From NCBI RefSeq assembly GCF_964213995.1, contig NC_135825.1:12090001-12154000 (forward strand): a stretch of DNA of 64,000 nt, written 5' to 3'. Position 1 is the stretch's first letter. Each line of letters starts with the position of its first letter. The notes beneath the pieces are model-generated. The model did no database searches, was not told the origin of the DNA, and was given only the letters and a program-made list of their open reading frames with translations. Shown here piece after piece: positions 17,521 through 64,000 of the stretch. This DNA comes from Mustelus asterias (taxonomy: Eukaryota). The position numbers and the translations under genes are program-made.

Positions 17521-17599
17521 CTTTCGGCAAATTTGTAGTTTGGAATTGAGGAATGTGTTGGCGATACTGTTAAAACGTCACAAGGATTTTCAGGTCCAA
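17521..17599 (-). CDS. Gene A exon 6: Ser/Thr/Pro-rich stalk (V)GPENPCDVLTVSPTHSSIPNYKFAE(S)
   Basis: Acceptor gtttccttgtttcag|TT, donor AG|gtacgc; 79 nt, phase 1 to 2, joining the C2 exon to the TM exon in frame; conserved and open in the paralog at 52708-52786. Confidence 0.8.
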
Positions 17600-21540: not shown

Positions 21541-21554
21541 CAACTATCACTTAC

Positions 21555-31158: not shown

Positions 31159-31189
31159 GTTTCCATGGAGATTTTTATGATCATTTGGA

Positions 31190-32674: not shown

Positions 32675-33365
32675 CTGAGGAGACAACATTTCAGCAATTG
32701 ACCAAGTAAATAACTGCTTCATACAGAGAGAAACATTTTAATAAGATTTACCACTGTGTACAGAGGAAACTCTCCAATACCTGTATTCATCATTCTCTTT
32801 CTAGTTTGTGATCAATGAAAACATGAATATAGAGCCGTGCTGTCAGTGCCAAAGTACTTCACTGACAATGATTTCTTGTTATGTACAGTGGCCATTGTTA
32901 TTGTGTCACCTTGTCACTCAAGCTTTGCACTGGCGCCTCTGAATGGGTGGATTGCAGGGTCAGGTCCCACTCCAGAGACTGGAGTATAAAATCTACATTA
33001 ACATTCCAGTGTAATACTGAGGGACAAGATGGCTCAGATTTTCCTCCCTCAGTCATGTTCAAAGAGCTCGGTGATGCCATTCAGGTGAAAGGTTCATCTG
33101 ACACCCAGGTCTGGAGGTTCCCTGTCATGGAGAAAATCCCGGGAATGGCTGGAATTTCAAAGTCCTAAGAGTGGGAGCGGGACTGGAATCAGGCTGCATA
33201 CACGATTCGTGGAGGCGAATTGTCATTAAATTCAACACCTGCCTTGATTTAAGTGAGATTTTGGATGAACAGGAGTGTGGAATCCGGTGTGTGCAGATTA
33301 GAATAGTTAAGAGAAGGTTTGAACTTGGTGGATTCTTATGGACAGCCAGGGTATGCCTTCTGGAC

Positions 33366-33468
33366 AGGAAAGTTACTCTTTGGAAGAGGAAAGTTACTCT
33401 TTGGGAGGGGAAAGTTACTCTTTGAGGGGGGAAAGTTCCTCTTTGTGGGGAGAAATTTATTCTTTGGG
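33366..33468. repeat. 21-bp minisatellite, about 5 copies (GGAAAGTTACTCTTTGGRAGR)
   Basis: Direct tandem repetition visible; ORFs show 7-aa periodicity. Confidence 0.85.
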
Positions 33469-34489
33469 ACAAACTCTGGTGAGTGGTCAGGGCCAGAGTG
33501 ATTATCTGGTTGTTTCAATTATTCTATTTATTAACCATGGCGCTGGGGCACAGAAACAGGCCTTGTGTCCAGCTCACCTCCGGGCTGAGCAGCCTGTGGA
33601 TTTGTTCCTGGGTCACCCGTCTCGATTCATTTTTTAATGCCTTTCCTGACTCAATGAACACGACCCAGGGATGAGATGAGGAGATTGTTTTCACTCAAGG
33701 TGTTGGGAATCTTTGGAATTCTCCACCGCAGAAAGCTTTAGATGTACAGTCTTGAAGGATATTAAACACAGAGATTTATACATTTTTGTGGTACTAACAT
33801 AATCGAGGGATATGGGAATAGTGCGGGAAATAAGATTTGAGGTTGGAGATCAGTCAGGATGTTGTTGAATGATGGAGCAGGCTCAAAGGGACAAATGGCC
33901 ATCTCCTGCTCTTATTTCTAATGTTCATCTTGAGGGGGAGAGGTGGCAGTATGAATCAAAAATTCCATTGCAGCCAGCATAATAGCATCAGTTTAATATG
34001 GGGCTGGTGTGAAAATTTAGATTTACTTTAAAAAGAAAATGATTACATCTTTGAAGGTCAAAGTAGACCAACCATGTACAAGTGATTGGATGGTACCATG
34101 GTGAGCCCGGCTGCCTCACAGGGCCAGTGACTTGGGTTCAATTCTGGCCTCAGGTGACTGTGTGGAGCTTGCATATTCTCCCATGTCTGCGTGGGATATC
34201 GCAGGGTGCTCCAGTTTCTACCTACAGTCCAAATATGTGCAGGTTAAGTTGATTGGCCATGCTAAATTGTCCCTTAATGTCCAAAGATGTATAGGTTAGG
34301 AAGTTAGTGAGGGAAATATGTGGTGTTACGGGGATAGGGCCTGGGTAACATGCTTAGCCGGAGAGTTGTTGCAGATGTGATGGGCCGAATGGCCTCCTTT
34401 TGTACTGTTGAGATTCTTTGAAGCAGATTTACCAACAGAGCTTCATAAAACAATATTTCATTCGTAATAATTTAAATAATACAAACAAA

Positions 34490-35150
34490 AGAAGGAAAAT
34501 GGTCTGTTGGCCTTCATAGCGGGAGGATTTGAGTACAGGGATAGGGATGTTTTGCTGCAATTGTACAGGGCATTGGTATGGCCTCACCTGGAGTATTGTG
34601 TGCAGTTTTGGTGTCCTTATCTGAGGAAGGATGTCCTTGCTATAGAGTAAGTACAGTGAAAGTTGACCAGGCTGATTCCTGGGATGACAGGTCTGCTTTA
34701 TGAAGAGGGACTAAGTCAGTTAGGATTATATTCACTGGTGTTTAGAAGAGTGAGGCGGGATCTCATAGAAATTTATAAAATTTGAACAGGGTTACAGAGG
34801 GTAGATTCAGAAAGAATGCCCTCAATGGTGAGGGAGTCCAGAACTAGGGGGTCATAGTTTGAGGATAAGGGGCAAACCATAAAGAACTGAGATGAGGAGA
34901 AACTTTTTCACCCAGAGGGTGGTGAATGTGTGGAATTCACTCCCACAGAATGTAGTTGAGGCCAAAACGTTGTCTGATTTCAAGAAAAAATTAGATAGAG
35001 CTCTTGGGGATAAAGGGATCAAGGAATATGGGAAGAAGGGGATCAGGGTATTGAATTGGATGATCAGCCATGATCAAAATGAATGGCGGAGCAGGCTCGA
35101 AGGGCCGAATGGCCTACTCCTGCTTCTAGTTTCTATTTTTCTATGTTTCT
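34490..35150 (+). mobile_element. Degenerate CR1 LINE 3' fragment
   Basis: LAFIAGGFEY, HLEYCVQFW, MRRNFFTQRVVNVWNSLP; (TTTCTAT)n tail. Confidence 0.85.
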
Positions 35151-35774
35151 AATTGCAAACTTGAGGAATATTTTCCTGGAGCCTTTGTTGCCTCTGCAGT
35201 CTTCAGAGTCAATTCAATGAGCAATAATCTGCAATGGATCACAGGCATCTCTCAACGTGAGGGAGGGACAATTGGTTACATTTAGTGTGGGGGGCAGGAA
35301 TGGGGAAAGGTGAGGAGGCAGATTTCCATAAACTACCACAGCCGCTCTGAGGATTGAACCCCTGCCATTGGAATCATTCCGCATTGCACTCCAAACAACT
35401 GAGCCAATCAAACCCTCCAGTCTCCAGGATATATTGAGCATGAAACTACATTAACAAGTTAACTTTTATTGGACTGAAATGTGTGGCTTCTGCATTTTAA
35501 TTATATTAATCATGTAGCTTTTTAACAAAAATAAATAGGTTAATTTATATTCACAATCAATAATGCCGTTTATTATTTGCTGGGTAAATATTTCTGTGGT
35601 ACAATACTATCAACAAAATAGCTACAAATATCACACAAATTCATTAATTTATTTTTGCTGAGTTTTTGTAGCTTTACATGTCTCCAAGTATTTCAATATC
35701 TCTGCGGGATAAACCATGCACGAGACTTAATCTAACACTCATCATCTCGGGATCCAGCTTTGTCCCTTACTCAC

Positions 35775-35811
35775 CAGGCAGAGAAAAGATGACAAGAATC
35801 AGAATCCACAT
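35775..35811 (-). CDS. Gene A exon 1: signal peptide MWILILVIFSLP(V)
   Basis: ATG at 35811-35809 in context ACAATGT (A at -3); donor CCTG|gtgagt; 37 nt, phase 1; continues VSGALWA in exon 2 as a hydrophobic leader. Confidence 0.88.
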
Positions 35812-35899
35812 TGTTATCTTGGCAATGTTTCGATCAGTATTTATCGTCTGTCACCCAGCTCTTTGTTGAGATGTTGAAAGGCGGATCCAATAAACTCTG

Positions 35900-36395
35900 A
35901 TACGGAAACGAAATAAGATTGAAGAAAGCAGCAAGCCAGGCCTCAGGAAATTCCACCCTTCAGAAAGCTCCAGAACGGAGGTCCCAGCTGGCCACTGCTA
36001 TCACTGGTTGTGCCAGCTCTAAAGATCCCCTTTAGCTGCTGATCTCCTTGTTCCAGCAGGCACAGCTCTATATCTGCACCTTTGGTGACCTGTGGACAGT
36101 TACTGTCCGGCTTTGACAGTGTCGCTCAGTGTGGTTGATGACATCATGGGAAATATGATTCACCCTGACACTTCCTGCACTATTGCTGAAAACAGAAAGG
36201 CCCAGAATTTGCTGAAAATACCACAGTGTGTAAACTGGCCAATGAACTGAGACAATGAAGAGATGTCAAACGAAATAAACAGGCCACAGAATGTTCAGTC
36301 TCGTAACATCATCCTCCCTGGCCCAGAATGCGAACAATTATAAACTCTGGAGTTTCCCTTTCTCCTGGATTGAATTAATGACCTGGATTTTCCAA
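35900..36395 (-). promoter_or_regulatory. Putative gene A proximal promoter with immune transcription-factor motifs
   Basis: EICE-type GGAAACGAAA 35904-35913, GGAAATTCC about 35946-35954, RUNX TGTGGT about 36130, ETS ACTTCCTG about 36170, kB consensus GGGAAACTCC (minus strand) 36349-36358. Motif matches only. Confidence 0.35.
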
Positions 36396-36611
36396 TGAGA
36401 GGAACGGCGAAGGTTAACAAACATTCACTGTTATTATGGAGTAAATGAGGTGGTAAATATCATGGCTGATATTTTTCTCATCCCCATTCTCCTGCCTTTT
36501 CCCCATAACCCCTGACCCCCTTATTAATCCAGAACCGATCTATCTCTGTCTTAGCACAGCCAATCCACCTAACCTACACATCTTTGGACACTAAGGGACA
36601 ATTTAGCAACT

Positions 36612-36787
36612 CCCCTCCCCCCCCCCTTGCCCCCAGTCCCCCCCCCCCTTTGCCCCCAAGTCCCACCCCCTTTGCCCCCAGTCCCCACCCCTTGCCCCCA
36701 GTCCTCCCCCTTTGCCCCCAGTCCCCCCCCCTTTGCCCCCAGTCCCCCCCCTTTTCCCCCAGTCCCCCCCCCCCACTTTGCCCCAGT
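36612..36787. repeat. C-rich minisatellite of about 21 bp (TTTGCCCCCAGTCCCCCCCCC)n
   Basis: About 8 imperfect units. Confidence 0.85.
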
Positions 36788-36960
36788 TCAGAGAGGATGG
36801 TGGGTGCAATTGATAGGGGGAGGAGGGTCATGAATCAGGAATGGTCCCTCCCACTTGTGAAAATTGAGGATTTGGGACTGAGTTTGACTATTGTTCAGTG
36901 AGCCAACTCCGGCACAATGAGCTGAATCAATTCCTTCTGTTCTGTAGTTTCTAGAGGGCG

Positions 36961-37969
36961 GGGGGTGATTCTCGTGATCTGCAACTTTTCCGGCCGGTCA
37001 GGCTGGGTGCTACGCGTCCTCGGCCTTTTTCTGGGATTTGCGCATGCGCCGGGAATACATGCGCTTCTCCCAGAGACGGAGAATAGTCGGAGTCCAGACC
37101 ACGCTGGAAATCGGCGGGAAGACGGGTAAGTGATTTGCAATTATCGGGAACTTGCCGGGCCCGATTGAATCTCCCACCCCACCAGGAGCACTTCATTCCG
37201 GCGGGGTTTAGAGAAGATCCCCACATTCGGGGAACTAGCGGGAGACCCCGCCGGAATGAAGGGCGCAACATCGGAGCCCCGCAGCGGGTCAGGTGCGGGG
37301 GTCAGGTGCCGCCCTGGGCATGGACACCCTGGCAGTGCCAGCCTGTGCCCCCGGCACTGCACAAGGTGCCAATTGTCCATGCCCAGAGAGTGCCTTGGCG
37401 CTGCCACTGGGCATCGGGCAATGACAAGGGGGCAAGGCCCATTGTGGGTGGAGCCGAGGGGTAATCAGTGGGGGGAGTGTCCCGCTGCCACTCTGCATGG
37501 TGATCGGTCTGGGCTGGGTGGAAGCCAGCGATCAGGGCAGGCTGTGGCGTGGGGTGGGGGGGTTCTGCTGGGGTGAGGGTGAGGGTGGTGGTGGGATCGC
37601 CACCAATGGGTGGGTGTGCTGGTCATCGGGACGCTCTGGGGCGGGGGATGGGTCAGAGCTGGCCCAGGAATTGTCTTGAGGGCCGCGATCAAGGTGTGTG
37701 GGGGGCCTGAGGGACAGCACTGTGGGGGTCCCGGGCTGGCCAGCAAACGGGGAGACTGACAGATCGGGGCCACTGCACATGCTCAGAGTTCCGGAGCTGT
37801 CAGACTCCGGCGTGAATAGGCCCCGCCCCCTGGGTGTTCAATAAGATTCCCGATTGTGACCTCGGCATTGCACAGAGTGCGGAGATTCGAGTGAGAAACT
37901 GCACTGAAAAAACAGTCGTGATCCAGAACAGTTTTCCCACAAATTCAGCACTTTTGGGAGAATCGCCCC
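36961..37969. mobile_element. Non-autonomous DNA-transposon/MITE-like element
   Basis: Terminal inverted repeats GGGGTGATTCTC...GAGAATCGCCCC; GC-rich interior resembles blocks at about 5040-5555, 25450-25880 and 49250-50190; short relatives with GGGCG(G/T)...CGCCC ends at about 6017, 14520, 22462 and 38728. Confidence 0.5.
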
Positions 37970-39247
37970 ATAGGTTTCTAATATTCACTCCCTGATGCTT
38001 CTCTCTGGGGTAACTTGTCCGCACCATGGTGGAGCTGATATGATCCCTGGTCATTCCTTCTTCACCCTGAATCATCTGATGTTCAAGAAATGTAGCAACC
38101 CCCGTGCTGTTTGCCTGTGACAAATTCTGTATCAATGCTGATCTTCTCACTGCTGCAAACATAGCTCTGCATTTGGTATCTGACACCTATTGTACATTCA
38201 CAGGGTTTCTGTCTCACACCACCCTGAGGATAGCAACACATTTTTCTTGCAGATTCAAACCATGAACATTGCAAGTTGCAGCAAACATGAAGCCACATTT
38301 ATTTCCAATGTCAATCTCTCTCTTTGCCTTTCTCATCAACCGTTAAAGAATTTGAGGAGTTAATGGAATATTGCTGTAAATTGGTGCTTATTTAGGATGG
38401 AGTCGTCACTCACAGAATTCCATACTCAATAAAAAATGATCAAACATTGGAATCATTTGGAAAATTCAGAACTCTGATTACAATCTGTTACACGTGGGTA
38501 AGAACTTCACTCTGAGTAAATCTAAAGTTAGGACTCTCACTGACCACAGCCTTGGGTGGAGAAACATGTTTATTTTTTATTATTAACTCATTCGTGGAAT
38601 CAGCAACAACAGCAATAACTTTCTCTTTATAAAGTACCTTTCACTCAGCAAAACCTCCTCCGACATTTTACAGGAATGTCATCAGACAAGTGTTGCTGCT
38701 GAGGCAAAGATTAGAGGGGGGGAGGGGGGGGCGATTCTCCCATTCCGACCCGTGAAGTTTTGGGCGCGTCGGGTTGGGAGATGTGCGTGTCGGCCATTTC
38801 GCGGGATCCCCGCGAGCGTTTACGACCCACGCGCATCTCCCAACCGGAAAAAAAATGGCACCGTTGGGACCGCGCTGAAAACCGGCCTACCACTAATTTG
38901 CATCACTTACCATGCTTTCGCATGCTATTATTGGGAGTTACTGGCTGCTTTTTACATCTCCTCCATTAGCTTTGAGAAAATGGGGGATCTTTCTTAAACC
39001 CCCCTGACTTAATGTAATTGTAACATTTAACAATTAATTAGCCATTAAACGGGCCACAGAATGTTCAGTCTCGTCACATCAGCCTCCCTGGCCCAGAATG
39101 TGAACAATTATACACTCTGGAGTTTCACTCTCTCCTGTATTGAATTATTGACCTGGATTTTCCAATGAGAGGAACGGCGAAGGTTAACAACCATTCACTG
39201 TTATTATGGAGTAAATGAGGCGGTAAAGAGGGTACGCATGTGCAATT

Positions 39248-40412
39248 AGAATCATAGAATCATAAAATCATAGAATCATGCAGCACAGAAAAGGTCCTTC
39301 AGCCAATCGAGTCCACATCGACACATTAGAAATATCTTAACCACCACCTAATGCCATCTGCCAGCACTTGGCCCCTCGCCATGAATTTTATGATGTGTCA
39401 AGTGCTCATCCAGGTAATTTTTAATGGATGTGAGGCAACCTGCCTCTACCACCCCCCCAGGCAACGCATTCCAGACCATCACCACCCTCTGGTTAAAAAC
39501 GCTTTTCCTCACATCCCCCATAAACCTTCTGCCCCTCACCTTGAACCTGTGTCCCCTTGTGACTGACCCTTCAACGAAAGGGAACAGCTGCTCCATTTCC
39601 ACTCTGTGCATGTCCCCTGTAGTCTTGTACACCTCGATCAGGTCGCCTCTCAATCTTCTCTGCTCCAACGAAAACAACCCAATCCTATCCAACCTCTCTT
39701 CATAACTTAAATTTTCTGTCCCAGGCAGCATCCTGGTAAATTTCCTCTGCACCCACTCCAGTGGAATTACATCCTTCTGATAATGAGGTGACCAGAACTG
39801 CACAATGTAGTCCTGCTGTGGCCTCACTAAAGTTCTATACAACTCCAACTTGACTTCCCTGCTTTTGTAATCTATGCCTCGACTGACAAAGGCAAGTATC
39901 CCATTTATCTTTTTCACCACCCTACTAACATGCCCTTCAATCTTCAGAGATCTGTGGACAAACACGCCAAGGTCCCTTTGTTCTACAGAACTTCCTTGTG
40001 TCCTAAAATTCATTGAGTACCTTCTGTCAAATTAATCCTTCTAAAGTGTATCAACTCACACTTTAAGGGTTAAATTCTATCTGCCACTTATCTGGCCATT
40101 TGACCATTCTATCTGTATCTTCTTGTAGCCCAAGACACTCTGCCTCGCTGCTAACCACCCGTCCAATCTTTGTGTCAGCTGCAAACGTACTAATCCTACC
40201 CCCCACAGAGTCATCTATGTCATTTATATAAGTCACAAATAATAGGGGCCCAACACAGATCCCTGCGGTACGCCACTGGACACTGGCTTCCAGTCACTAA
40301 AGCAGCCTTCTGTCATCACCCTCTGTCTCCAACATTTTGAATTCACTTTATTAAATTACCCTGTACCCAATGTGCATTTACTACTTTACAAGTCTCCCAT
40401 GTGGGATCTTGC
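39248..40412 (-). mobile_element. Degenerate CR1 LINE
   Basis: ORF 39348-40013 QRDLGVFVHRSLK...; (ATTCTATG)n tail. Confidence 0.9.
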
Positions 40413-42579
40413 CATTCTGAAATGTACAAGTTGTGGCTCTAATTCCCCAGTTTCCCCAGAGGCTGTTCTATGCTGATACCTCACTGATAGAGGCAGCATG
40501 GAAACTGATGTAAAGACATGGGCCTGAATTTTATATCCTCCAAGGTTCAAGCAGGAGCTGAATGGGGCGGACTCGCCAGTCAGTCAGTGCGAGCACCAGA
40601 GAGGATGGTGGATACAATTGACAGGGGGAGAAGGGTCATGAGGCAGGGATGGTCCCTTTCACTTGTACAGTGCTCCATGGGCAGAGGATGCCAACAATCC
40701 AGTCCTCCAACACTGGCATACAGACAGGGAAATCCCAGTTGTCCCACCATGTGACCTGTTCATTATTGGAGATTTTAAAATTTGTTCAGGAACTTAAAAA
40801 TTTGTTTTATTGTTATTTAGTTTTCATGGGAAATGAGTATTGCTGGCGAAGACAGCATTCATTCCCCATCACTAATTTCCCTTGACAAGGTGGGGGTATG
40901 CCACTGTCTTGTACAGCAGGAAATGCAGCAACACCCGTGCTGTTTGTCTGTGACAAATTCTGTATCAATGCTGATCTTCTCGCTGCTGCAAACACAGCTC
41001 TGCATTTGGTATCTGACACCTATTGTACATTCACAGGGTTTCTATCTCACACCACCCTGAGGACAGCAACACATTTTTCTTGCAGTTTCAAACCATGAAC
41101 ATTGCAAGTTGCAGCAAACATGAACCCACGTTTATTTCCAATGTCAATCTCTCTCTTTGCCTTTCTCATCAACCGTTAAAGAATTTGAGGAGTTAATGGA
41201 ATATTGCTATAAATTGGTGCTTATTTCGGATGAATCCGTCACTCACAGAATTCTATACTCAATAAAAAATGATCAAACATTGGAACCATTTGGAAAATTC
41301 AGAACTCTGAGTACACGTGGGTACTCTGTTACACGTGGGTAAGAACTTCACTCTGAGTAAATCTAAAGTTAGAACTCTCACTGACCACAGCCTTGGATGG
41401 AGAAACATGTTTATTTTTTATTATTAACTCATTTGTAGAATCAACAACAACAGCAATAACTTGTTCTTTTAAAAGGGCCTTTCACTCATAGAATTTTGCA
41501 GTGCAGATGGAGGCCATTCGGTCCATCAAGCCGACACAATGCCACCCAGATCCTATCCCTATAACTCCACATATTTACCCTGCTAATCCCCTGACACAAT
41601 GGGGCAATTTAACATGGGCAATGAATCTAACCTTCACATCTTTGCATTGTGGGATGAAACCGGAGCGCCTGGAGGAAATTCACACAGACCACGGGGAGGA
41701 CATTGTGCAAACTCCACACTGCCAGTCACCCAAGTTCGGAATTGAACCTGGGCACCTGGCACTGTGAGGCAGCAGTGCTAACCACTGTGCCACCGTACTG
41801 CCCGGTAAAACCTCCTCAGGCATTTTATGACATCAGACAAGTGCTGTTGCTGAGGCAAAGATTAGATCAAAGAGACTGGTCAGTTTTAGGGAGAGGTTGC
41901 TGGAGTTTTGCATCTAGACAATTGGAAACATTACTGTTAGCGGTGTGGTGAAGAATTGGAAATACACGAGAAGCCACGGCTGGGGGAACATAAGATTCGC
42001 AGAAACATTTGTAAAGATAGGGACTGACGAGAACATGGAGAAATTTGAATAGGAGAATGAGAATTTAATATTGAGTTTATTTGATTTTGGGAACCACTCA
42101 ATGAGCACATACACATGAGTGAAGGGCACCCGACAGGTGTCACAACAATATGTCATGTGAGATATGGAATAACACTCTTTAAATTTATCACCTGGACAGA
42201 TATGCGCTGAAACTCATTAAAGGGGCTTTTGCCGAGCAAAGTCACGACATACAAACACACAAATTAGGAACAGGAGGAGGCCATTCAGCCCCTCATGCCT
42301 AATCTGTCATTCAATGATATCATGGCTGATCTGATTGTGACCTCAGCTTTATATCCCACTGACCCTGATAATCATTGACTTCCTTGTTAGTCTAGAATCT
42401 TCCAAGCCTCATCTGAAAAATATTTATTGACTCTGCCTCCACCACTCTCTGGGAAAGAGAGTTCCAATAATTCACAACCCTCTGAGAGAAAATAAATCTT
42501 CTCATCTCTGTCTTCAATGGGAGAAACCTTATATTTAAATGGTGTTGGTGAGTTGTAGCGTCTCTCAGCATCCACCCTG

Positions 42580-43499
42580 TCGTGTCCTCCATTAAGGGAC
42601 CAGACCAGACACTCCAAGGTGTTTCATAAAGTTAGCCGAGACCCAAACTTTTAGATTTGATTTTGGAATTAGGGTGAGCATAAGGTGTTTTACTCCAGGT
42701 ATGATTCAAGTGACCCACGAGGAAACTTTAGTCAAAACTAACTTTATTTAAGAAACAGTTAGAATAGAGCAAAAAAGAATTAGCATAACTTTTACCAAGT
42801 AAAATACTTAAACATGACAAAGTATAATTTTTACAAGCTAGCTATCGCTATTGTTCCAATTTAGCACATCCCCCAGTCAGACATAAATCCCATCTTGAGA
42901 AACAGTTCGCAAAGAAAGCAAATATGCTTCATGAACACTTGGTTTCCAGCCTTTTAATACCTCTCGACAAACATCAGGACAGCACTTTCTAGAGAAGGAT
43001 ATATTCCAAACAACAGAACTTCAGAGAAGTAAACCTAATCTGTGGCAACTCCCAGTCTTCAGACTTCAGAATTGGAAATGGATTCCTCACTCTGCAGCTT
43101 CCAAAACATCACCTTCTCAGTGAAAGAGACTTGCTTCCTGGCAAATTCCAGTCTCCAACTTCAGAGAGGGAAACTGAAAGGCACGACTCTCTAACAACTC
43201 AAAGCAGAATTTGACTTGATCTTTCTGTGTAAACCTAGCTCCACCTAGTGATACGACTGTACCTATCACTTAACCTAATCAAGCCCTACTCTGCAAAACC
43301 CCAGGGGCCCACTGAAAATCAAACAGAAAAACATTAGTCCAGATTAAAACAAACATCCTTGCAATTAGGAGCAATTATGCTGCTGCAGTAACAACACACT
43401 GCTGCTGGACAAAGCGGCATGGATAACAAAAAGAATCTGCGAAAACAGACCTGCATAAGAAACGTAACAATACATTCCTTAATTCACAATATTTTCACA
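42580..43499 (-). mobile_element. Solo LTR related to 8663-9426
   Basis: Shared blocks ACTCCAAGGT...GTATGATTCAA.TGAC...TTTATTTAAGAA; ends in CA; left boundary approximate. Confidence 0.55.
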
Positions 43500-46442
43500 T
43501 GAGCCAATCCTCTATCCATGCATGAATATTCCCTACAAAACCATCTTGCGTATTAACCTTTTGTATGGTACCTTATCAAATGCCTTTTGAAAATCCAAAT
43601 ATACAACATCGACTGGTTCTCCTCTATCTACTCTGATTGATACCTCTTCAAATAACTCTAGTAAATTTGCCATTCATGACTTTCCCTTCATGAACCCAAT
43701 CTGACTCTGCCTGATCACATTATAACTTTCCAAAGGCCCTGATATTCTTTCCTTAATAATTGATTCTGACATTTATCCAACAACTAAATTTAAACTAATC
43801 CAGGGAATTTCCCATTCTGAGGTTATACAGGCACATTGTTCCATCCTGGGAAAGTGGAATATATCATTGGAGCGACTGGTATCCAGTGCATGGAAAAATC
43901 ATGTTGCCAATTCCTTCCAGAATTTGTTCATCTTTAAATTGACAAAGATTAAGATAAGAATATGAAACAAGAAATGTAGACATTTAATCAGCAAACAGAT
44001 CAATTATTCTCCAGATGTCGATATACAACCTGAAGGTCACAGCCACTGTTTGGATTTTGATTCCTCCACTAAATTTTTGATCCAAATCATGTTGGTTGGT
44101 TTTTGTTTTTTTATTAGTGTCACAAGTCGGCTTACATTAACACTGCAATGAAATTACTGAGAAAATCCCCCAGTCGCCACACTCCGGCGCCAGTTCGGGT
44201 CACTGAGCGAGAATTCAGCATGGCCAATGCACCCGAACCAACACAACTTTCAGACTTCATTTAATAATGAAAAAACATACTATTATGTAGATTTGTTAAA
44301 AGAAATGTTCAAAGCTGGATGAGGATTGAATATTTGACCAGGATGCAAAATTGCTTCGATGTAGATGGAATCCCAGAATCTTCATTTTCCCACTTTGGTC
44401 CAACTGTGAGAATTGGATTCATTGAGTGACTGGAAAAGAAAATCATCAGATTCATTGAGATTGGGAGAACAATGCATCAATTGACATTTCAGTCTTGAAC
44501 AGAATTCTGGAAATGGCAACAATTTGGGGCAGTTTCGAGATCACATTGATCGCCCTTTGCATGTGCGCTGGGAAACACTCGTTTGGATCCTTCATGAAGA
44601 CACGTAACCTTATTTACCCACAGAAAACCAATGTTCCCCTGCTGCTGTGATTATGGACAATTGACTGGAGAAATTGATTGCTCTGTCCATGTTTCTAAAA
44701 ATATTTTATACAGTCCAGTTGGTGCTTCCAGCAACAACATCATTGGGTCTGTGTCTCAGCCTCTTACTGCTGTCTGAATCATTTGAAATCTCTTCCAGTT
44801 CCTGTCCAGAAACAGTCAGCCCTGTTGCCTTTTTATAGCCTTTCCAATTTCCTTCCTTATTCTTTTGCTGACAGTTTAATAAGATTGGATGGTAAGATGG
44901 AAGGGTTCTTCCATGGATGGGTTACACAGGAACACAGTAACAAGAGCAGCTCATTCAGCCCCTCGAGCCTGTCACACCAACCTGCAACTCCACACAGACA
45001 CTCACCCAAGACCAAAATCGAACCTGGGTCCCTGTCTTATCTAATCCCAGCTGTGAGAATTCTAATTGGCCCAGCATCCACAGATTTTAGGATGGATTAG
45101 TTCCAGATTTCCATGACTAGCTGTGTGAAAATAATGCTTCCTAATTTTACTCCTAAGTATCTAAGCCCTCACTTTTGGGTTATGGCCCCGTGTACTCCAT
45201 CTCCCCACTGGGCAAAGAGTTTCTCTGTACCCACCATACTGAATCCCATAAAAACTTCAATCACCTATCCCAGCAACCTCCAAGTGTGAGGAAATGCAGC
45301 AAATTTGTGCAATCTCTGCACATAATTTACTCCATTCTTCCCTGTATCATTCTGATGTATTGATATTGCAGAGATGATGGTTTAGTGTCAATGTCACTGG
45401 GCTAGTAATCCAGAGGTTGATAGTAAAGTGCTGGGAACATGATTTCAACATAGTAGCTGGTGGAATATAAATGCAATGAATTCAATTTCAATTGATGAAT
45501 GAATCTGGAATTGAAAATCTGACCAATGGTGACCAGGAAGCTTGTCATCAATTGCTGTAAAAACCCATCTGGTTGGTTGGGGATGGTGATAAACGGTCAT
45601 AAATTGTCATAAATCCTCACTGATATCCGTCAGGGAAGGATATCTGTTTTCCTGATGCAGTCTGACCTCCATGTGACCCCAGACCCACCGTGATGTGTTT
45701 GATTCCTAACTGTCTTCTGAAATGGCCGAGCAAGCCACTCGGATCTGGCAATTAGGGATGGGCAACAATTCTGCCCTTGCCAGTGACGTCCACATCCCGT
45801 GAAATAGAACAAAAAGACACTGCATCCCTTCCGAGGCCAATATTTTGTTCCTGTGATTCGGACACCATCCAGAACAAACAATTCAACATTGCATTATAAA
45901 ATCCTCCAGTGATAAAGTGAAACTTCCATTTATGAGTGGAAGTTATCCTGGACAAAGTCAGCTGATCACTTCAGGATGGATGCAGCTGCAACAAGGATCA
46001 GGAACATTGACACAATCGAAAACAAACAGTCCCCTTGATCTTTCCTACATAACATCAGCAACACTTCAAAACCAAACCATATAAAATGTAAGATACTTTG
46101 GGTGGACTTTCCACCCAAGTTCCTCTGGTGGGGTGAGGGAGGGAGGAGGGCGGAGGGGGCTGGACAAGAGCAGAAGATCTCGCGAGAGCCCCCAATCATG
46201 TTATTACTTTGATGGGAAGTCTCTTTGTGATTGTCCCCAGCTCCCATCACTGACATCACAGGATTCCCAACGTTGAACAACATAATCAATTTGCATGTCA
46301 TTATCAAGACCTGGCACCTGATCAACCCCCGCTCCCCCCACACCCCCCAACCCTCACTTCCACTGTTCGATGATCCACTCACATCAGTGTGAGGGCACAC
46401 TGGTGTGCATTATGATTGATGGCCATGGCATGTACCAGGAGG

Positions 46443-47385
46443 AAGTCTCACAACACCAGGTTAAAGTCCAACAGGTTTATTTGGTAGCACAAGCCACTAA
46501 CTTTTGGAGCGCTGCCCCTTCATCAGGAGAGTGGGAGTTCTGTTCACAAACAGGGCATATAAAGAGACAAACTCAATTTACAAAATAATTGTTGGAATGG
46601 GAGTCTTTACAGATAATCAAGTCTTAAAGGTACAGACAAGGTGAGTGGAGAGAGGGTTAAGCACAGGTTAAAGTGATGTGTATTGTCTCCAGCCAGGACC
46701 ACCAGTTACACGGTACATACTCTTGCAACTCGGCCAACGTTGTCTACCTGATACGCTGCAGGAAAGGATGTTCCGAGGCATGGTACATTGGGGAGACCAT
46801 GCAGACACGATGACAACGGATGAATGAACAATGCTCAACAATCGCCAGGTAAGAGTGTTCTCTTCCTGTTGGGGAGCACTTCAGCAGTCACAGGCATTCG
46901 GCCTCTGATCTTCGGGTAAGCGCTCTCCAAGACGGCCTACATTACACACGACAGCGCAGAGTCGCTGAGCACAGACTGGTAGCCAAGTTCCGCATACAGG
47001 AGAACGGCCTCAACCGGGATCTTGGGTTCATGTCACACTATCTGTAACCCCCATGACTTGCCTGGGCTTGCAAAATCTCACTAACTGTCCTGGCTGGAGA
47101 CAATACATATCTCTTTAACCTGTGCTTAACCCTCTCTCCACTCACATTGTCTGTACCTTTAACACTTGATTACCTGTAAAATCTCACATTCCAACCATTA
47201 TTTTGTAAATTGAGTTTGTCTCTTTATATGTCCTGTTTGTGAACAGAACTCCCACCTCCCTGATGAAGGGGCAGCGCTCCGAAGACCAGTGTCTTGTGCT
47301 ACCAAATAAACCTGTCAGACTTTAAGCTAGTGTTGTGAGATTCCTTACTGTGTTTACCCCAGTCCAACGCCCTCATCTCCACAGT
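46443..47385 (+). mobile_element. Penelope-like element with inverted pLTR (GIY-YIG fragment between inverted arms of about 260 bp)
   Basis: YSCNSANVVYLIRCRKGCSEAWYIGET; arms at about 46443-46699 and 47086-47346; 13-bp TSD ATGTACCAGGAGG (46430-46442 and 47386-47398). Confidence 0.88.
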
Positions 47386-47452
47386 ATGTACCAGGAGGGC
47401 AGACCCACTGCAGATGCTCAGGTGAGTGCATCGCTCAAGTTACTATCAAGGA

Positions 47453-47925
47453 GCAGTGTCCATTCAGTGCCAGGGGTCAGTGCCAGTGACAGCGTCCATG
47501 CAGTGCCAGGGGTCAGTGCCAGGGTCAGTGTCCATGCAGTGCCAGGGGTCAGTGCCAGTGACAGCGTCCATGCAGTGCCGGGGTCAGTGCCAGGGTCAGT
47601 GTCCATGCAGTGCCAGGGGTCAGTGCCAGCGTCAGTGTCCATGCAGTGCCAGGGGTCAGTGCCAGTGACAGCGTCCATGCAGTGCCAGGGGTCAGTGCCA
47701 GGGTCAGTGTCCATGCAGTGCCAGGGGTCAGTGCCAGGGTCAGTGTCCATGCAGTGCCAGGGGTCAGTGCCAGTGACAGCGTCCATGCAGTGCCAGGGGT
47801 CAGTGCCAGGGTCAGTGTCCATTCAGTGCCAGGGGTCAGTGCCAGTGTCAGTGTCCATGCAGTGCCAGGGGTCACAACTGGGGCAGCGTCCATGCAGTGT
47901 CAGGGGTCAGTGCCAGAGGCAGTGT
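47453..47925. repeat. 36-bp minisatellite, about 13 copies (CAGTGCCAGGGGTCAGTGCCAG[T/G]G[A/T]CAG[C/T]GTCCATG)
   Basis: Direct repetition; 12-aa periodic ORFs in several frames. Confidence 0.92.
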
Positions 47926-48112
47926 CGGGGGGCAGGGCGGGGGTGTGGAGGGGGGGGGGGCGGTGCATGAGGTTGTGCAAGGGGAGGGGGGTTCCATTTT
48001 CACTTTTGTGCATCAAGTTGACTTTCAAAAATATCATTTTGATCTTGAAGAAACTGAAATTTCTGGTGGGATGGGCAGTATCCTGTCCCTTCAACATTTA
48101 TACACATATTCT

Positions 48113-48154
48113 TCACCATATTTCTTCACCGCCTCTTTTCCTGCCCCTGCCACA
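48113..48154 (-). CDS. Gene B candidate terminal exon (short basic tail CGRGRKRGGEEIW*)
   Basis: Pyrimidine-rich acceptor ttttacctttcatttccaag|TGT in phase 0, 134 nt after the TM donor. Alternatives are the next AG (GQEKRR*) or intron read-through (VRIMDFTTIILSTL*). Confidence 0.35.
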   Translation of the reverse strand, partial: CGRGRKRGGEEIW

Positions 48155-48288
48155 CTTGGAAATGAAAGGTAAAATTCCCCCCCGTGTTTAAACCTGTGGA
48201 CATTGACATCAATGCAAGTTTCTCTGCACAATATCTGTGATAATTACAAAGTGCTCAGAATGATTGTTGTAAAGTCCATAATCCTCAC

Positions 48289-48388
48289 CTGAGATTTTCT
48301 CGTGAACCATGTGACCGAAATCACACAAATCACCAGGAGGGTAAAGAGCCCCCAGCGAATCACATTCCAGATGAAGAAACTGAGCAAA
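48289..48388 (-). CDS. Gene B transmembrane exon with charged Arg (NxxR): LLSFFIWNVIRWGLFTLLVICVISVTWFTRKSQ
   Basis: Acceptor ttctgtatttcttccag|T, donor CAG|gtgagg; 100 nt; phase-2 start matches the stalk exon; hydrophobic helix containing one Arg. Confidence 0.85.
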
Positions 48389-49123
48389 CTGGAAGAAATA
48401 CAGAATGATTTGAAGGGAATGAGGCAGCTTCGTGTTTGAAACATGAATCTCCTCTTTACACTGTGACCTATTGTAGCAGCATCGCACAGACAAGGCACGT
48501 TAGCTGGAGCAATCAACTAAAGTTTCACTGATCAACTTCATGATCATTAGATACAGATCAAATGGAGCTGGTTTCATTAACTTTCCTCAGTATATCTGTA
48601 ATGCTGAGTAAAAGCTTAGAAGTAAGAATGTTATGAATTGACTGGTCATTGGGACAGAAACATTGTCTGGTGCAACATAACATTGGTGAGATATCTGTTC
48701 AGTGAGTAAGAAACTTCCAATAACATCATCCCACACTGTTCCAAAGTAGAATCATATTCCACTCAATATCAACTCTGCTCCTCTCTTCACAGATGCTACC
48801 GGACCTGCTGAGTTTTCCCAGCACTTTCTGTTTTCATCATCCCACAATTCCCTGGTGCACCTCCTGACAGGAAATTCGGAACCAGCCGGAAGCAGACGGC
48901 CTCAGTTTGGGAACAATGTATTAAACTGGGCAACTGAGAAGGGGAAGATGACAGTGAATGCAATGTTCCTGTCAGCGATACTCCAGAACACACCGGGTTA
49001 AGGGAATCTGGCATCGCTGGAGTGTGACAAGCACAACTCCATGAGATTGGGTTCACGGTGAAGTGATTAACATGAATAATGAAAACTGCACCATCTAAGG
49101 TGTGGCAAACAGAGAAAGCTCAC

Positions 49124-49142
49124 TTCTTAGTCTGAATTTCCA
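49124..49142 (-). CDS. Candidate 19-nt stalk micro-exon (V)EIQTK(N) of gene B
   Basis: Branch point CTAAC, acceptor gctgtttctgtcag|, donor AA|gtgagc; phase 1 to 2. Confidence 0.4.
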
Positions 49143-50618
49143 CTGACAGAAACAGCAACTTTGTTAGGAAGCTAACACAATACCATTATGTAAACACAGC
49201 TACCGGGTGGGATGGTGAGCCCGGGTTGGGGGACCACAGGAATGCTGATGGGGATTCAATATCTGGCAAAACCTGGAAGGCGCAGGCGACTTCATCAGAT
49301 TCACGGCCATAGTGGGCAAGAACCTGATTTACATACATTTTAATATATTTCCATATCATTAAAGACCCCCCCACTCCCCAGATATTGAGCCCTCGCTGTG
49401 TTTTCAAACCGGGGCAACGTGACATCACATTGGTGCATTTTACATCAGGTTCACCTGGACATGATGGGGAACCCCCTTCCTGGGCAAGAGGGATATGGTC
49501 AGGCAGTGGCCTGGCAATGCCCTCTGGCACTCTCCCTTGGCGCAGGTTGGCACTGCCAAGTTGGCACCATGCCACCCCAACATTGCCAACCTGGTAGTGC
49601 CAACCTGTACCAGTGGCAGTTCCGGGGTGGACCTCAGTGGGAGTCTGATGGGGGAGGGGTTATTCATTTACAAGTGAGGGTGGGCCGGAGCGGACAGGGG
49701 AGCTGGAGCAGCCGTTTGTGGGAAGGGGCTGGGTTTGTCGGCAATGGCTGTGTGGGTGGAGGGTTGGAGGGAAGGGCTCCAATGTTCGGGGGGAAGGGGG
49801 GTGGTGCCAGCACTGACTGCTGGAGGGGGGGAAAGGTCTGATATTCGGGGGAGGGGTTTGGTGTCAGCACTGACTGCTGAGGGGTGATGTGGGGGGAGAA
49901 TTGCTGGCTCATAATAGGAGGATGCCCCGACTCTGACCGGGGTGTGGTGGGATTTGGGGGGAGCCCCTGAGAGCTCTGTGGTGGGTGGGGGGGAGGTTAC
50001 ATTTAGTTTTGATTGGGCCGCCATGTTTGTGCACTGTCAGCTTACTGCAGCCAGGATTTGCTGGTGTATCGAGGCCCCGCCCCCTACATGACGATGTGAA
50101 GCACGCCCAGCTGTTTTTTTTGTGACAGAGTGTGGTAAGTTCTGGAGAGAAAGACAACCTGCTTCGAGCCAGAACCAACAGTTTTCAGTAAGATTTCCCT
50201 AATATTGTGTTTTATGTTTACGGGGGCTGTTTACAGATTCAGCTTTATTCTGGAGGCAGTCGGTGTATCAGTAAAACATTCAGTTCAGATGCTGGGAGAG
50301 CAGGATAATGGCTCATTTTAGCCATGGAGGGGGGAAGCTAAGCAAAAAATGACTGTTGTTTCCGGTGAGAAAACCGACAGGTGTCTCTCCAGAGAAACAG
50401 GTTAGATTTCTGTGCAGATCTTTGACTGAGAGAGGAAACCGGAGCACACGGAGGAAACTCACGTAGGTTCAGAGAATGTGCAGACTCCAGGCAGACAGTC
50501 ACCCAAGGCCAGAATTGAACTTGGATCCCTCGTGCTGCGAGGCAGCACTGCTAACCACAGTGCCTCTGTGTCACCTGTTGTCATCCTATTGTTAGATCAA
50601 AATCCAGGAATTTCTTAC

Positions 50619-50712
50619 CACTCACTTTTCGTCCATGCCACACCAATCTGACCTGTGTCACACAACTGCAGTTCTCCCCTGATCTGATGATCACTGACAC
50701 TGGAACCATTTC
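50619..50712 (-). pseudogene. Relic 3' end of a C2 Ig exon at the duplication breakpoint
   Basis: Translates EMVPVSVIIRSGENCSCVTQV versus D4 EMVSVSVINRSGENCSYVAQI; abuts a CR1 fragment at 50713; possible donor gtaag at 50618. Confidence 0.8.
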
Positions 50713-52707
50713 TGGGACCTGTGGACATTCACTCCAAGGATTTTCAAATCCTCCACATACCCCAGTATCCTCCCATTTATTATCTCACCATTTGCTTTGT
50801 TTGACCTGCTCAAATGCATCACCTCACACTTCTCTGGGTTGAATTCCATTTGCCACTTTTCTGCCCACCTGACCAGTCCATTGATATCTTCCTGCAACCG
50901 ATAGCAATCCTCCTCGCTATCTACTGCATTAGTAATTTTCATTACATTCCATCTAAATCATTAATATATGCCAGAAAAAACAGGGGACCGAGCACTGAGC
51001 ATTGGAAACAGCCTTCCAGTCACAAAAACAGCCATCAACAATCATCCTTTGTTTCCTGCCACAATTAATTCTTGGCCATTTGTTTACGGAAGTGGGTTTT
51101 GAAATTATACAGCACTTTTCATGGCCTTTGGATGGCCTAAAGAATTTTATAATCTGGGAAGTATTTTTAAACAACCGCCACTGTTGTGATATGGGAGATG
51201 TGGCAACCAATTTGCACACAGCAAAATCTCAGAAACAGCAGTGAACTTTGACCAGATCAATATTGGCCATTTCTTCAGAGATCTCCTTGTCTGCTTTTTC
51301 TGTAGATAAGAAGTGACCTGCTGCGTATTTCCAGCAGCTTTTTCATCATTTTGATGTTTAGTTGGTATTTTTTCCTCATCACCATTGTAACCTCCGTGTT
51401 TACATTGGACAACAATTTCTGCTCTTTCTGTGTGTCCCAACTATGTTAGGGGTAGTGGGTTTTAACAGAAAAAGAAAATACTTGGTTTGCACACGTAGAT
51501 TCAAGCAAGCACAAACCAGGTTTTATTGATGAGCTGCTCTCTGCACTGCATCAAGTACAAAACTGACAGTCACACAGCAGCCTGAGCACGCACCCTAATG
51601 ACATCACATCAAATCAACCCATTTTAAAACTCACACCTTCATGATGAAGCGAACACAACAACATCCCGCCAAGGTTTCTGATCTGAGAGTTATTGAAAAA
51701 TGATGCCCAGTCTCCCCGATCGTCAGAGACTGGACATATGACCCAAGATGTGTGTCAGGACCCTGCAGATGACCCAACATGATGATCTCCATGGGAATTG
51801 CCTGGGACATTGGAACTTCCAACGGACAGTTCTGCTGTACCCTGGGTCCCTCTGTGAAAATCTTCAGCTCTGGGTAAGAGTCAGACACTTCAAACAATTC
51901 CATGGGGCTTAACTGGATAGTTACCCAGGAAATGTTAGACTGAAAGAATCAAGTTTAATTCCTGGGTAATCACAGAACTGACCCCCGAATAATCACACTG
52001 ACCCCCTGGAGTCCCCCCAATCCTCTGATTAACCCCCTGACACACCAACTATCACCCCACACTCCGCCAATTCCACCTGATCTTGTGACTATGCCACAAC
52101 CTGAGCCAATCCGATTATTCCCTCTGACTACCCTTTGCACCCACCACTTGATTACCCAATGTCCAAATCTGATTAGCCCCCAAACCAGGCTACCCCTGCC
52201 AACCTGACCCAATTGCCACACTATTCATCTACCACCTCATCAACCTACAACCTCACCCACCTGCAACCCTACCCTCCTGTCACTTCATCAACAGACTACC
52301 TCACCCAACTGCCACTCTACCCACCTCACACGCTTGTGACCTCACTCATCTGTTTTCTCACCCACCTACCATCCTTGCCTCCGACTAGCAACACATCTAT
52401 ACACCTGTCTCCCTATCCATCTTTCACCCGACCCACCTGTGCTCCTACAGAGTTCCGATGGAGTTCTCCGAGGGACACTGCGCTCCACAGTTCTGGAGAA
52501 TCTGGAGTCGGAAGATCAGGCAAGAAATGTGGAGCTGAGTCGAGGGTGGAAAGCTTCAAGCGGAGTGGCAATCCAACAATGATTGCTGCTCTGTGACTGG
52601 CCCAGGACAATAAATGACATCCATTCTCACGCCAAAGTTGTTAAAGAGGATTTAATCACTCACACAGAAGCCATGTCATTTAAACACTAACAATAAAAAC
52701 AGCGTAC

Positions 52708-52786
52708 CTTTCAGCAAATTTGGAGTTTGGAATTGAGGAATGTGTTGGCGATACTGTTAAAATTTCACAAGAATTTTCAGGTCCGA
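52708..52786 (-). CDS. Gene B stalk exon (V)GPENSCEILTVSPTHSSIPNSKFAE(S)
   Basis: Splice sites intact; 79 nt; 4 amino-acid differences from the gene A stalk. Confidence 0.75.
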
Positions 52787-56751: not shown

Positions 56752-57075
56752 CAACGCTGTTGATCTGTGCCACATAACTGCAATTCTCCCCTGATCTGTT
56801 GATCACTGACACTGAAACCATTTCACTGGATTTTTCTTCCTGGTGATTTGAGGCTGTGCAGTAATATTGATGATGTTGCTGTGTGAAGGATTGACAATGT
56901 AGATCCAGTTTATTGGTGTCAGAGATCTCTGAATCTTCAGACGGGGTCTTTTCATGCCATGTGTACTGAATGGGAAGTGATCCCTGGACAGACTCACAGG
57001 AGACGGACACTGAGCCCCCAGAACATGAGGCATTTGGTGGTGATAAAAATTTAAGTTCAGGAACAGACACGGGTT
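56752..57075 (-). CDS. Gene B Ig C2 domain D4
   Basis: Same splice sites as gene A exon 5; one amino-acid change (TWYEK to TWHEK). Confidence 0.9.
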
Positions 57076-58336: not shown

Positions 58337-58645
58337 CGTCAGATATTTGTAGCTTTACAGGAAACATTGAAAGGAAGCCGGGCTTATCAATACCACAGCT
58401 GTACCATCCTGCATCTCCTGAATGAAGATCCTCCATAGTAACAACAAATAATGCTTGTGTCTTGTGATCTGTGATCGACATTCTCCCTCGCCGTCCATCT
58501 GGATCGTCTGATTTTACCAAAACAGAGCACTGACGACTCCAAGTTTTCACATGTGACTGAGACAATTTGTCATAGTGACAATCTATAGTGATCGATCTTC
58601 CCAAAACTCCTGTTACATTATTTTTTGCCCACAATGCACTTGCAG
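58337..58645 (-). CDS. Gene B Ig V domain D3
   Basis: Same splice sites as gene A exon 4; one amino-acid change (PGLLS to PGFLS). Confidence 0.9.
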
Positions 58646-59314: not shown

Positions 59315-59638
59315 CAATGTTGCTGATTTGTGTTAAATAACTGCAGTCATTCTCTGAAATGTGGATCACTGACACTGTAACCATTTCACTGGATTTTTTT
59401 CCCTGGTTATTTGAGGCTGTGCAGTAATATTGATGACGTCGCTGTTTGAAGGATTGACAATGTAGATCCAGATTATTGGTGTCAGAGATCTTTGAATCTT
59501 CAGACGGGGTCTTTTCATACCATGTGTACTGAATGGGAAGTGATCCCTGGACAGACTCACAGGAGACGGACACTGAGCCCCCAGAACATGAGGCATTTGG
59601 TGGTGATAAAAATCTAAGTTCAGGAACAGACACGGGTT
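59315..59638 (-). CDS. Gene B Ig C2 domain D2
   Basis: Same splice sites and same translation as gene A exon 3. Confidence 0.9.
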
Positions 59639-61652: not shown

Positions 61653-64000
61653 TGATGCGTGACAATTAAGCACGTGGAACCAAGGCTTCGATATTGAAGG
61701 CTTTTATTGTGTAACAATGGAACTACTAACACGAATACACCAGTTCAGACTGAAGGGGTCCTGCCGGAGCAGGGGGTCTTATACCTCGCCACCGGAGGCG
61801 GGACCCCACTGGAATGTGCCATGATAACTCTTATAACAGGTAAACACCCTAACCCAACAACATTGTACAACCCCCACAGTAACAACACCCTAGCCCAACA
61901 GTAACATAATAACAACCCCCAGTGGTGAACCAACGATGGTTCACCACATTCACCCCTCCTTTAAGAACAAAAGGTGGCGGGGTGCAAGAAAAAACAGGTC
62001 ATATAAACAGAATTCACAAGTCCAGACGGTCTGGAGGACCGCACCGACGCTGTGATCTCCTCAACACCGGTTGCGAAACCGGAGCAGGTGCTTGCGGTGG
62101 CGTTCTTTCCAAAACAACGTCTGGCTGTCCCCTCAAGGACTCCCGGGCCGGTTGGCCCTGGTGAGGCGATGGTGCAGGGGATCCTGGAACCTTTGGTGGT
62201 GGTGGTGGTGGTGATGATGGTCGCGCCGATCTCCCGAGTCTCAGGCAAGCTGTACATGGGAGTAAAAGTGTTATGCACTGGTCCCGGTGCTGACCGCGCC
62301 ACGTCTCGGGAAGCAATGAGGAGTAGTGGATTCGTGACTGGGGGAATAGGAGCGACAGGAGTTGCTACGTCCCCTGCGGGCGCCAGGTCTCTAATGGAGA
62401 CAGTGTCCTCTCGCCCGTCAGGATATGCCACATAGGCATACTGAGGGTTGGCGTGGAGGAGTTGGACCGGTTCGACCAAGGGGTCGGACCTGCGAGCCCT
62501 CACATGTCGCCGCAGAAGGACGGGTCCTGGGTACGTCAACCAGGCTGGCAATGAGGTTCCCGAGGACATCCTCTCGTGGGGAGTAGCATTGGTTGCCGTA
62601 CACAGGAGGGAGCGGATAGAATGGAGTGCCTTTGGAAGGACCTCCTGCCAACGGGAGACTGGAAGGCCCCTGGATTTCAGTGCCAGTAGGACAGCCTTCC
62701 AGACTGTAGCATTCTCCCTTTCCACCTGTCCGTTACCCCTAGGGTTGTAGCTCGTGGTTCTACTAGAGGCAATCCCGAATGAGAGCAGGAATTGCCTCAA
62801 GTCGTTGCTCATGAACGACGAGCCCCTGTCGCTATGAATGTAGCAGGGGTACCCGAACAGGGTAAAAAGCTCACTGAATGCCTTGATGACGGTGGCAGTC
62901 GACGTGTCCGCACAGGGGACAACAAACGGAAACCGGGAATACTCGTCTATTATGTTGAGGAAATAGACATTCCGGTCCGTTGAGGGAAGGGGGCCCTTAA
63001 AATCCACACTCAGCCTCTCAAAAGGGCGAGTGGCCTTGACCAATTGTGCCCGGTCTGGTCGATAAAAGTGTGGTTTGCATTCTGCGCAAATCCGACAGCT
63101 TCTCGTCACTGACCTGACATCCTCCACCGAGTAGGGCAGGTTGCGGGCTTTGACGAAGTGGTAGAGTCTGGTGACTCCAGGATGACACAGATCATTGTGG
63201 AGAGCCTTCAAGCGGTCCTCCTGCATGATGGCGCATGTTCCGCGCGAGAGGGCATCCGAGGACTCATTGAGCTTCCCTGGACGATACATAATATCGTAAT
63301 TATAGGTGGAGAGCTCAATTCTCCACCGCAAGATCTTATCGTTCTTGATCTTGCCCCTCTGCGTGTTGCTGAACATAAACGCCACGGATCGTTGATCCGT
63401 GATCAGGGTGAACCGCTTCCCTGCCAGGTAATGGCGCCAGTGTCTGACTGCCTCCACAATGGCCTGAGCCTCCTTCTCCACCGCTGAGTGCCGAATTTCG
63501 GGGCCTTGAAGGGTGCGGGAAAAGAACGCGACGGGCCTGCCTGCCTGGTTTAGTGTGGCGGCTAGGGCGAAATCAGATGCATCACTCTCCACCTGGAAAG
63601 GGATGGATTCATCCACTGCGTGCATCGTGGCTTTCGAGATGTCGCTTTTCAAAGCCTTGAAGGCCAATTGGGCCTCCGGCGTAAGTGGGAAGGTCGTGGA
63701 CTTAATGAGCGGACGAGCTTTGTCCGCGTAGTTGGGGACCCACTGTGCATAATACGAAAAGAACCCGAGGCATCTCCTCAGTGCTTTCGTGCTAGCGGGC
63801 AAGGGAAGTTCAGTAAGTGGGCGCATACGGTCTGGATCAGGGCCAATGACCCCGTTTTCCACCACGTATCCGAGGATGGCTAACCTACGCGTACGGAATA
63901 CGCACTTCTCCCTGTTATAGGTCAGATTCAGGCGAGATGCAGTGCGCAGAAAGTGTTGGAGATTCGTGTCGTGGTCCTGCTGGTCATGGCCGCAGATGGT
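61653..64000 (-). mobile_element. Duplicated Gypsy element (3' LTR 61653-61948 plus IN/RH/RT, cut by the window end)
   Basis: Same left flank (..TAATGTTTC|TGATG) as the 26456 copy; ORF 61961-63865; 21-bp in-frame deletion in integrase. Confidence 0.97.

Follow-up and report, generated by a model that had tools for sequence, protein, structure and literature searches.

A non-homologous join with a retained exon stump likely marks the origin of a predicted activating twin of an inhibitory receptor in the shark Mustelus asterias

Results

The window analysed here is a 64,000-nucleotide stretch of the 3.68-Gb genome of the smooth-hound shark Mustelus asterias (contig NC_135825.1, 12,090,001–12,154,000). 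Positions refer to this stretch unless given as contig positions. On its minus strand lie an inhibitory-type receptor gene, A, and an activating-type gene, B1 (Table 1). Searching the whole genome with the C2 exon gave 55 matches among 92 candidates, every one of them at 11.87–12.57 Mb of the same contig. In the 764 kb that we mapped around the window, V/C2 receptor genes are clustered, with 12 arginine-type and seven uncharged transmembrane (TM) exons among them, so by sequence motifs both activating and inhibitory members are present, as in the modular domain immune-type receptor (MDIR) multigene family. Compared with solved structures, the V domains were most similar to pIgR, followed by CMRF35/CD300 (E 2.8e-19), NKp44 and TREM, and they also match Pfam V-set. 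Identity to skate MDIR was 65% (MDIR5) and 68% (MDIR3) for C2 and 55% (MDIR5) for V. Because the V domains are closest to pIgR/CD300/TREM and the exons are 55–68% identical to skate MDIR3 and MDIR5, we assign the cluster to predicted MDIR-like paired receptors of the CD300/pIgR family.

Table 1 Features of genes A and B1, their repeat unit and the junction
Feature	Position	Strand	Remarks
A cytoplasmic exons (about 13440–13387 and from 10663), ITIM-like VYASV and VTYATL	10390..13440	-	3' end approximate
A TM exon, uncharged	14981..15069	-	phase 2 start
Uncut CR1 fragment, A intron 6	15464..16081	-	15731 is the counterpart of the break
Repeat unit U0 (34,982 nt): A ectodomain, spacer, B1 tail	15731..50712	-	four more units to contig 12286531
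A stalk exon	17521..17599	-	
A exons C2 (21878–21555), V (23448–23140) and C2 (24441–24118)	21555..24441	-	
Gypsy-type LTR retrotransposon, A intron 2	26456..31158	-	two 296-nt LTRs, 100% identical
A first V exon	32354..32674	-	
A signal-peptide exon	35775..35811	-	
B1 short cytoplasmic exon with stop	44382..44429	-	without tyrosine
B1 TM exon, P-family, W-N-V-I-R-W motif	48289..48388	-	phase 2 to 0
Stump: 94-nt end of a P-family C2 exon	50619..50712	-	4-nt deletion at 50647/8; strong phase-2 donor kept at 50618
Junction: two bases matching neither parent	50713..50714	-	in a short stretch of parental likeness (TCC..TGAA..GGT)
CR1/LINE fragment of inhibitory-family intron 6	50715..51057	-	cut at junction
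B1 stalk exon, inhibitory-family type	52708..52786	-	phase 1 to 2
B1 second C2 exon	56752..57075	-	
B1 second V exon	58337..58645	-	
B1 first C2 exon	59315..59638	-	
B1 Gypsy-type LTR retrotransposon	61653..64000, continues beyond window	-	site as in A
B1 first V and signal-peptide exons	contig 12159642 and 12162780, past window end	-	

Along the minus strand, the genes in and beside the window follow the order P, B4, B3, B2, B1, A. They are built from five units of 34,982–37,292 nt, each running from the A-type CR1 to the P-type exon and differing by 0.24–2.3%. Individual units have private indels of 1,793, 354 and 106 nt, and no assembly gap interrupts the array. Window positions 30000–50712 are collinear with the P-to-B4 stretch at 94.5–99%. 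This P-B-A order with collinear spacers is the arrangement of a hybrid gene formed by segmental duplication, whether in one step or two. As in paired receptors, the ectodomains of A and B1–B4 differ by only 0.4–0.8% over Ig exons and introns, and by motif A carries ITIM-like sequences while B has a charged TM and a short tail. Two database models, P0001 and P0002 (1,458 and 1,254 aa), fuse the array and omit the arginine TM exons, so neither of the two models covering it includes any of the four predicted activating receptors.

Several other features of the cluster were apparent. One inhibitory gene (contig 12025403–12072362) has 14 C2 and 13 V exons in alternation, with stop codons in one V exon, and similarly long genes lie at contig 11978384–12007901 and 12341727–12375069. 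Head-to-head inverted pairs, inh11973 with inh12077 (contig 11.96–12.08 Mb) and P with Q (12.28–12.32 Mb), point to large inverted duplications. At three activating TM exons (contig 12454889, 12515383 and 11891316), the first acceptor AG has been lost, and a second AG 9 nt downstream in the same phase is the predicted replacement. A CR1 of 1.5 kb (20002–21534), whose open frame spans 511 codons, sits 12 nt past the C2 donor in both A and B, and near-identical copies of it (96–97%) occur in other cluster genes.

Aligning the window with itself, we found that homology of B to A begins at 50715, the equivalent of 15731, and extends to the window end, at 92.5% over the 1,364 columns nearest the junction and 98.6% over the next 11,750. 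An earlier note on this DNA had placed the end of this homology near 50713/15730, inside a CR1 fragment of intron 6, and the alignment bears this out with exact coordinates. The exon order signal peptide (SP), V, C2, V, C2, stalk makes the break-bearing intron number 6. The break itself falls within a CR1/LINE reverse-transcriptase fragment (the Pfam RVT_1 hit, at E 5e-05, falls short of the curated cut-off). The tblastn match in B ends at 50709, whereas in A the same match continues uncut past the break, from 16081 to 15464 and beyond.

Immediately after the break, the minus strand reads EMVPVSVIIRSGENCSCVTQV, the end of a C2 exon. This stump aligned to an intact C2 exon with a local score of 142, compared with 33 for the best of 1,000 dinucleotide shuffles, and together with its downstream intron (138 nt) it aligned over its whole length to three intact genes at 83–87%. 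The stump reported earlier is therefore real, but it measures 94 nt rather than 70–90, since the 5' splice site of the donor genes is shifted. The proposed direct joining also stands, in that CR1 abuts the C2 remnant, except that two bases between them match neither side. With at most a few bases shared by the parents at the join, it fits end-joining or microhomology-guided repair and not homologous crossing-over (NAHR). We also considered whether error-prone repair lay behind the substitutions beside the join. We rejected this, as the 10 and 8 private changes of B within 150 nt are matched by 12 in A and nine in act11923 in the same bins.

The junction is a genuine DNA join. It occurs in four of 27 genome matches, the four being 100% identical. 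Where the earlier note had asked for long reads across it, short-read contigs from runs X1 and X3 span 50501–50816 with 0 differences. These were two of seven sequencing runs and belong to one study that possibly includes the assembly's source. No bridging contig was found in X4 (same species), X5, X6 or X10 (related organism), and X9 gave no contig at all, although contigs cannot show absence, and those of X4, X6 and X10 do contain uncut forms of both parents. Because X4 also has contigs identical to the B-specific intron (51913–52210), its missing bridge shows neither absence nor polymorphism. Contig depth in X1 was 86 for the bridging form vs. 58 for the inhibitory type, which fits several copies but is not a measure of copy number. 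The evidence for the join itself is firmer than that for the number of B copies.

In all four B genes, the exons SP-V-C2-V-C2-stalk-TM-tail, with the stump skipped, give an open frame of 514 aa with canonical splice sites. The predicted protein has an A-like ectodomain and stalk, an arginine TM and a short tail, and the stalk meets both TM types in phase 2. The stump is likely skipped in splicing, since its two candidate AG acceptors are preceded by eight pyrimidines in 16 positions vs. 10–14 of 16 at seven real acceptors. Still, its nearer acceptor and surviving donor would yield a 93-nt piece that is in frame and free of stops because of a 4-nt deletion of B's own. An indel restores the frame by chance about one time in three, so this is a lead only. 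We find it doubtful that the stump is alive, with junction bases having made a CAG acceptor and an alternatively spliced exon adding 31 residues to the stalk. If this were true, a single datable array would record how a paired receptor was born, repaired and amplified and how its copies evolved in concert. From its sequence, B would be expected to deliver activating signals through the TM arginine. TMs with the NxxR motif are described as associating with FcR-gamma in Xenopus (PMC2413239), but the adaptor of B is uncertain because the asparagine occurs in just three of 37 related activating TMs. In the intron following the B1 TM exon are a 72-nt tandem repeat and an adjoining inverted repeat (47454–47926 and 46436–47383), a stretch that varies strongly between units.

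Both parent types persist in the cluster. The earlier note had suggested looking for an intact gene in which the same C2 end is followed by the NxxR TM, and we found three: P, Q and act11923 (TM at contig 12284114, 12317545 and 11923791). In each, the C2 exon is complete and is followed by the same 2.3-kb intron, with the same TM lying 2.2–2.3 kb on. These P-family genes have no stalk exon, and a predicted shifted phase-2 donor joins C2 to TM in frame. At contig 12286457, 12315270 and 11926138, they have lost the normal C2 donor along with the stalk exon and appear to splice from the shifted donor 25 nt downstream, apparently a second, older rearrangement scar placed exactly at the exon end. 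On the inhibitory side, all four A-family genes (A and three others) have the uncut CR1 and the same stalk exon. Among 94 TM-adjacent segments drawn from 120 homologues, the five best matches to the B stalk all precede an uncharged TM, including those in white shark and basking shark proteins, and the best activating segment ranked sixth of the 94. Because those five best matches are all followed by an uncharged TM, the stalk with an arginine TM in B is a derived combination, and the outgroup arrangement argues against that of B being ancestral, as the earlier note's reading had required.

The earlier note's interpretation was upheld in part. B is a derived chimera, with a 5' part of the inhibitory family and a TM and tail of the activating family, and the stump is what remains of the activating gene's last C2 exon, but the donor cannot be fixed to the present gene A. 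Over the 300 nt next to the break, B differs by 12.7% from A and by only 6.2–6.9% from three other inhibitory genes. The right-flank tree fails to resolve P as sister (55/37). For these two reasons, present-day P and A are not proven to be the exact parents. Nor does the whole ectodomain look simply inhibitory in origin, as had been supposed. The stalk and intron 6 are of inhibitory type, but the shared 5' half is closest to activating P and Q. In A, window positions 24000–36300 are mostly nearest to these two genes, and much of intron 1 is 96–99% identical to Q vs. 76–85% to inhibitory genes. For this reason gene A is itself a mosaic, and exchange of ectodomains may have run in both directions.

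Divergence around the join was strongly uneven. Between B and A it is 12.7% in the first 300 nt, 3.5–9.8% up to 2.7 kb and 0–1.3% farther out. Between B and P it is ~8% in the first 200 nt, 0% in the next 140 columns, 3.8–4.9% up to 1.25 kb and, past 2 kb, 0.8%. The first 1.2 kb of the flanks gave tree distances of similar depth on both sides (~0.068 changes per site for B-A and 0.054 for B-P), and the four B copies are near-identical across both flanks. By contrast, all five ectodomain blocks share a Gypsy element at one site, with LTR pairs 99.7–100% alike. The join is thus old (flanks 5–7% diverged), and the 99.5% identity of the A and B ectodomains reflects recent homogenisation; it is the diverged flanks set against a young shared insertion that separate the two in age. 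The near-identity to gene A was therefore not a product of the junction. The young Gypsy in five blocks speaks for later exchange, as does the tail of B2, which is P-like over ~8 kb (contig ~12167000–12175500, ending short of the join) where the tails of B1, B3 and B4 are 2–2.5% from P; this is apparently a conversion or crossover tract. The Gypsy element has a 1,396-codon open frame and older relatives elsewhere in the cluster.

Discussion

The junction likely marks the accident that gave an inhibitory receptor a predicted activating twin, in a cluster that already held paired receptors. We consider the join to be probably the boundary of a tandem duplication that set a P-type last C2 exon against the CR1 of an A-type intron 6, making the hybrid gene B. 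The direct observations are the join, the two parent types, the P-B4-B3-B2-B1-A order with collinear spacers, the four 514-aa frames and the phase-2 match. The duplicated segment would have spanned the DNA between the final C2 exon of a P-type activating gene and the CR1 in intron 6 of an A-type gene just downstream, and non-homologous or microhomology-guided repair would have sealed the join. Left without its acceptor, the stump would be skipped, and an inhibitory-family ectodomain and stalk would be spliced to an activating TM and tail. Such a swap of signalling ends is workable because stalk and TM exons meet in the same phase, 2. The new repeat could then have fed unequal crossing-over and conversion, bringing B to four copies, and those rounds of exchange may have homogenised everything but a few kb beside the join. 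B presumably signals through its TM arginine with an ITAM adaptor such as FcR-gamma, and it would bind the same ligand as A.

The main rival to a single tandem duplication is a two-step route that produces an identical end map. In this scenario, either a complete activating-inhibitory pair was duplicated or the locus already had an inhibitory gene upstream of an activating gene, and a CR1-to-C2 deletion subsequently fused the inner genes. Similar neighbours do exist. The gene inh11973 lies directly upstream of act11923, where a deletion alone would produce a join of this type. Q is followed by inh12380 on the far side of a 200-base assembly gap, and the spacer between them is similar to that between P and A. 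The closeness of the first 300 nt of the left flank of B to inhibitory genes other than A is also in keeping with two steps. Against this, the route costs one extra event, B and A fall together on one side of a 95/94 branch in an unrooted tree of the first 1.2 kb, and the spacer and neighbours of B are those of P and A. We therefore regard it as a serious but unlikely alternative.

Three further explanations fared much worse. The earlier note held that a rearrangement had replaced the Ig exons of an activating gene with those of the inhibitory gene; done in place, this would mean that one long tract of gene A overwrote them in a single event. It would also explain the A-B ectodomain identity, but the diverged flanks and the young shared Gypsy give the identity and the join different ages, and no second break occurs 5' of B, where homology continues through the promoter and spacer into the next unit. 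This continuous unit structure largely refutes replacement in place. Moreover, since an intact gene of the activating parent type, P, still stands beside the array and the four copies of B are additional to it, nothing was replaced, and we consider this reading very improbable. About equally improbable is homologous recombination between the intronic CR1 and another CR1 within an activating C2 exon. The break does sit in a CR1, a repeat abundant in the genome, but that CR1 breaks off partway through its reading frame, directly against exon sequence, the 3' part expected in such a product is missing, none of the three intact P-family exons contains a CR1, and an additional deletion would be required. 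Least credible of all is an assembly artefact, either a false join or a false haplotype duplication. Units that are 97.7–99.8% alike and five of seven runs without a bridging contig could raise that suspicion, yet short-read contigs from two samples bridge the join exactly, the four copies share substitutions and a deletion peculiar to the join, and the array is gap-free with indels specific to single units.

Hybrid genes of this kind are known. Human FCGR2C has its 5' part from the inhibitory gene and is located between its parents. It is described as a hybrid of FCGR2B and FCGR2A that arose from a segmental duplication, ascribed to non-allelic homologous recombination, and the duplicated block is said to favour further recombination and copy-number change (PMC6563257). 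As far as that account goes, the shark locus is alike in that neighbouring activating and inhibitory genes duplicated to give a hybrid and then recombined further. It differs in that the shark join links unrelated sequences, an intronic CR1 and the middle of an exon, and left an exon stump, four copies and a member of another receptor family. It is the non-homologous join with a retained exon stump that is unusual, and since the principle is known from mammals, the surprise is limited.

The tandem pair SIGLEC5/SIGLEC14 also resembles A and B, with near-identical ectodomains and structural polymorphism that includes a fusion allele. It differs from the shark locus in having been shaped by homologous conversion and deletion, and we know of no non-homologous join or exon remnant there. 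In what has been termed merohomogenization (KLRC/NKG2, KLRI, KLRB, Ly49 and PIR), conversion or recombination is described as keeping ligand-binding exons alike and signalling exons distinct (PMC3210942). The shark pair is similar to those described there in that the A and B stalks, differing at four of 26 residues, were not homogenised. However, the opposing genes in that description are old orthologues, whereas the shark junction records the birth of the partner and the homogenisation can be ordered against a young transposon.

The origin of activating twins is usually argued from trees, either as fresh birth from an inhibitory gene or as old partners kept alike by conversion. The present locus offers both routes in order and with marks at the level of single bases: an old swap of signalling ends, followed by homogenisation that postdates a young transposon. 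It does so in a little-studied receptor family, and in sharks. In the literature that we searched, which covered few subscription papers, we found neither a genomic account of how an MDIR pair originated nor a description of this locus or of any paired-receptor family in which a non-homologous join had left an exon stump. The MDIR of the clearnose skate are named in PMC3031540. Like the skate proteins P0066 and P0075, the shark receptors combine V and C2 modules, have a CD300/pIgR-like V domain and include activating (W-x-x-x-R-W TM, short tail) as well as inhibitory members.

The process may be general in the family. We built a tree of the last C2 domain and stalk from the 44 of 94 TM entries in which a C2 start was recognisable within 200 residues, all of them automated models that are perhaps fused in some cases. 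Its well-supported branches force at least eight changes between activating and inhibitory labels. Moreover, 12 of the 14 activating entries have a nearer neighbour in an inhibitory entry from their own species than in an activating entry from a different species. This suggests that mixing of ectodomains with TMs may recur across sharks and rays.
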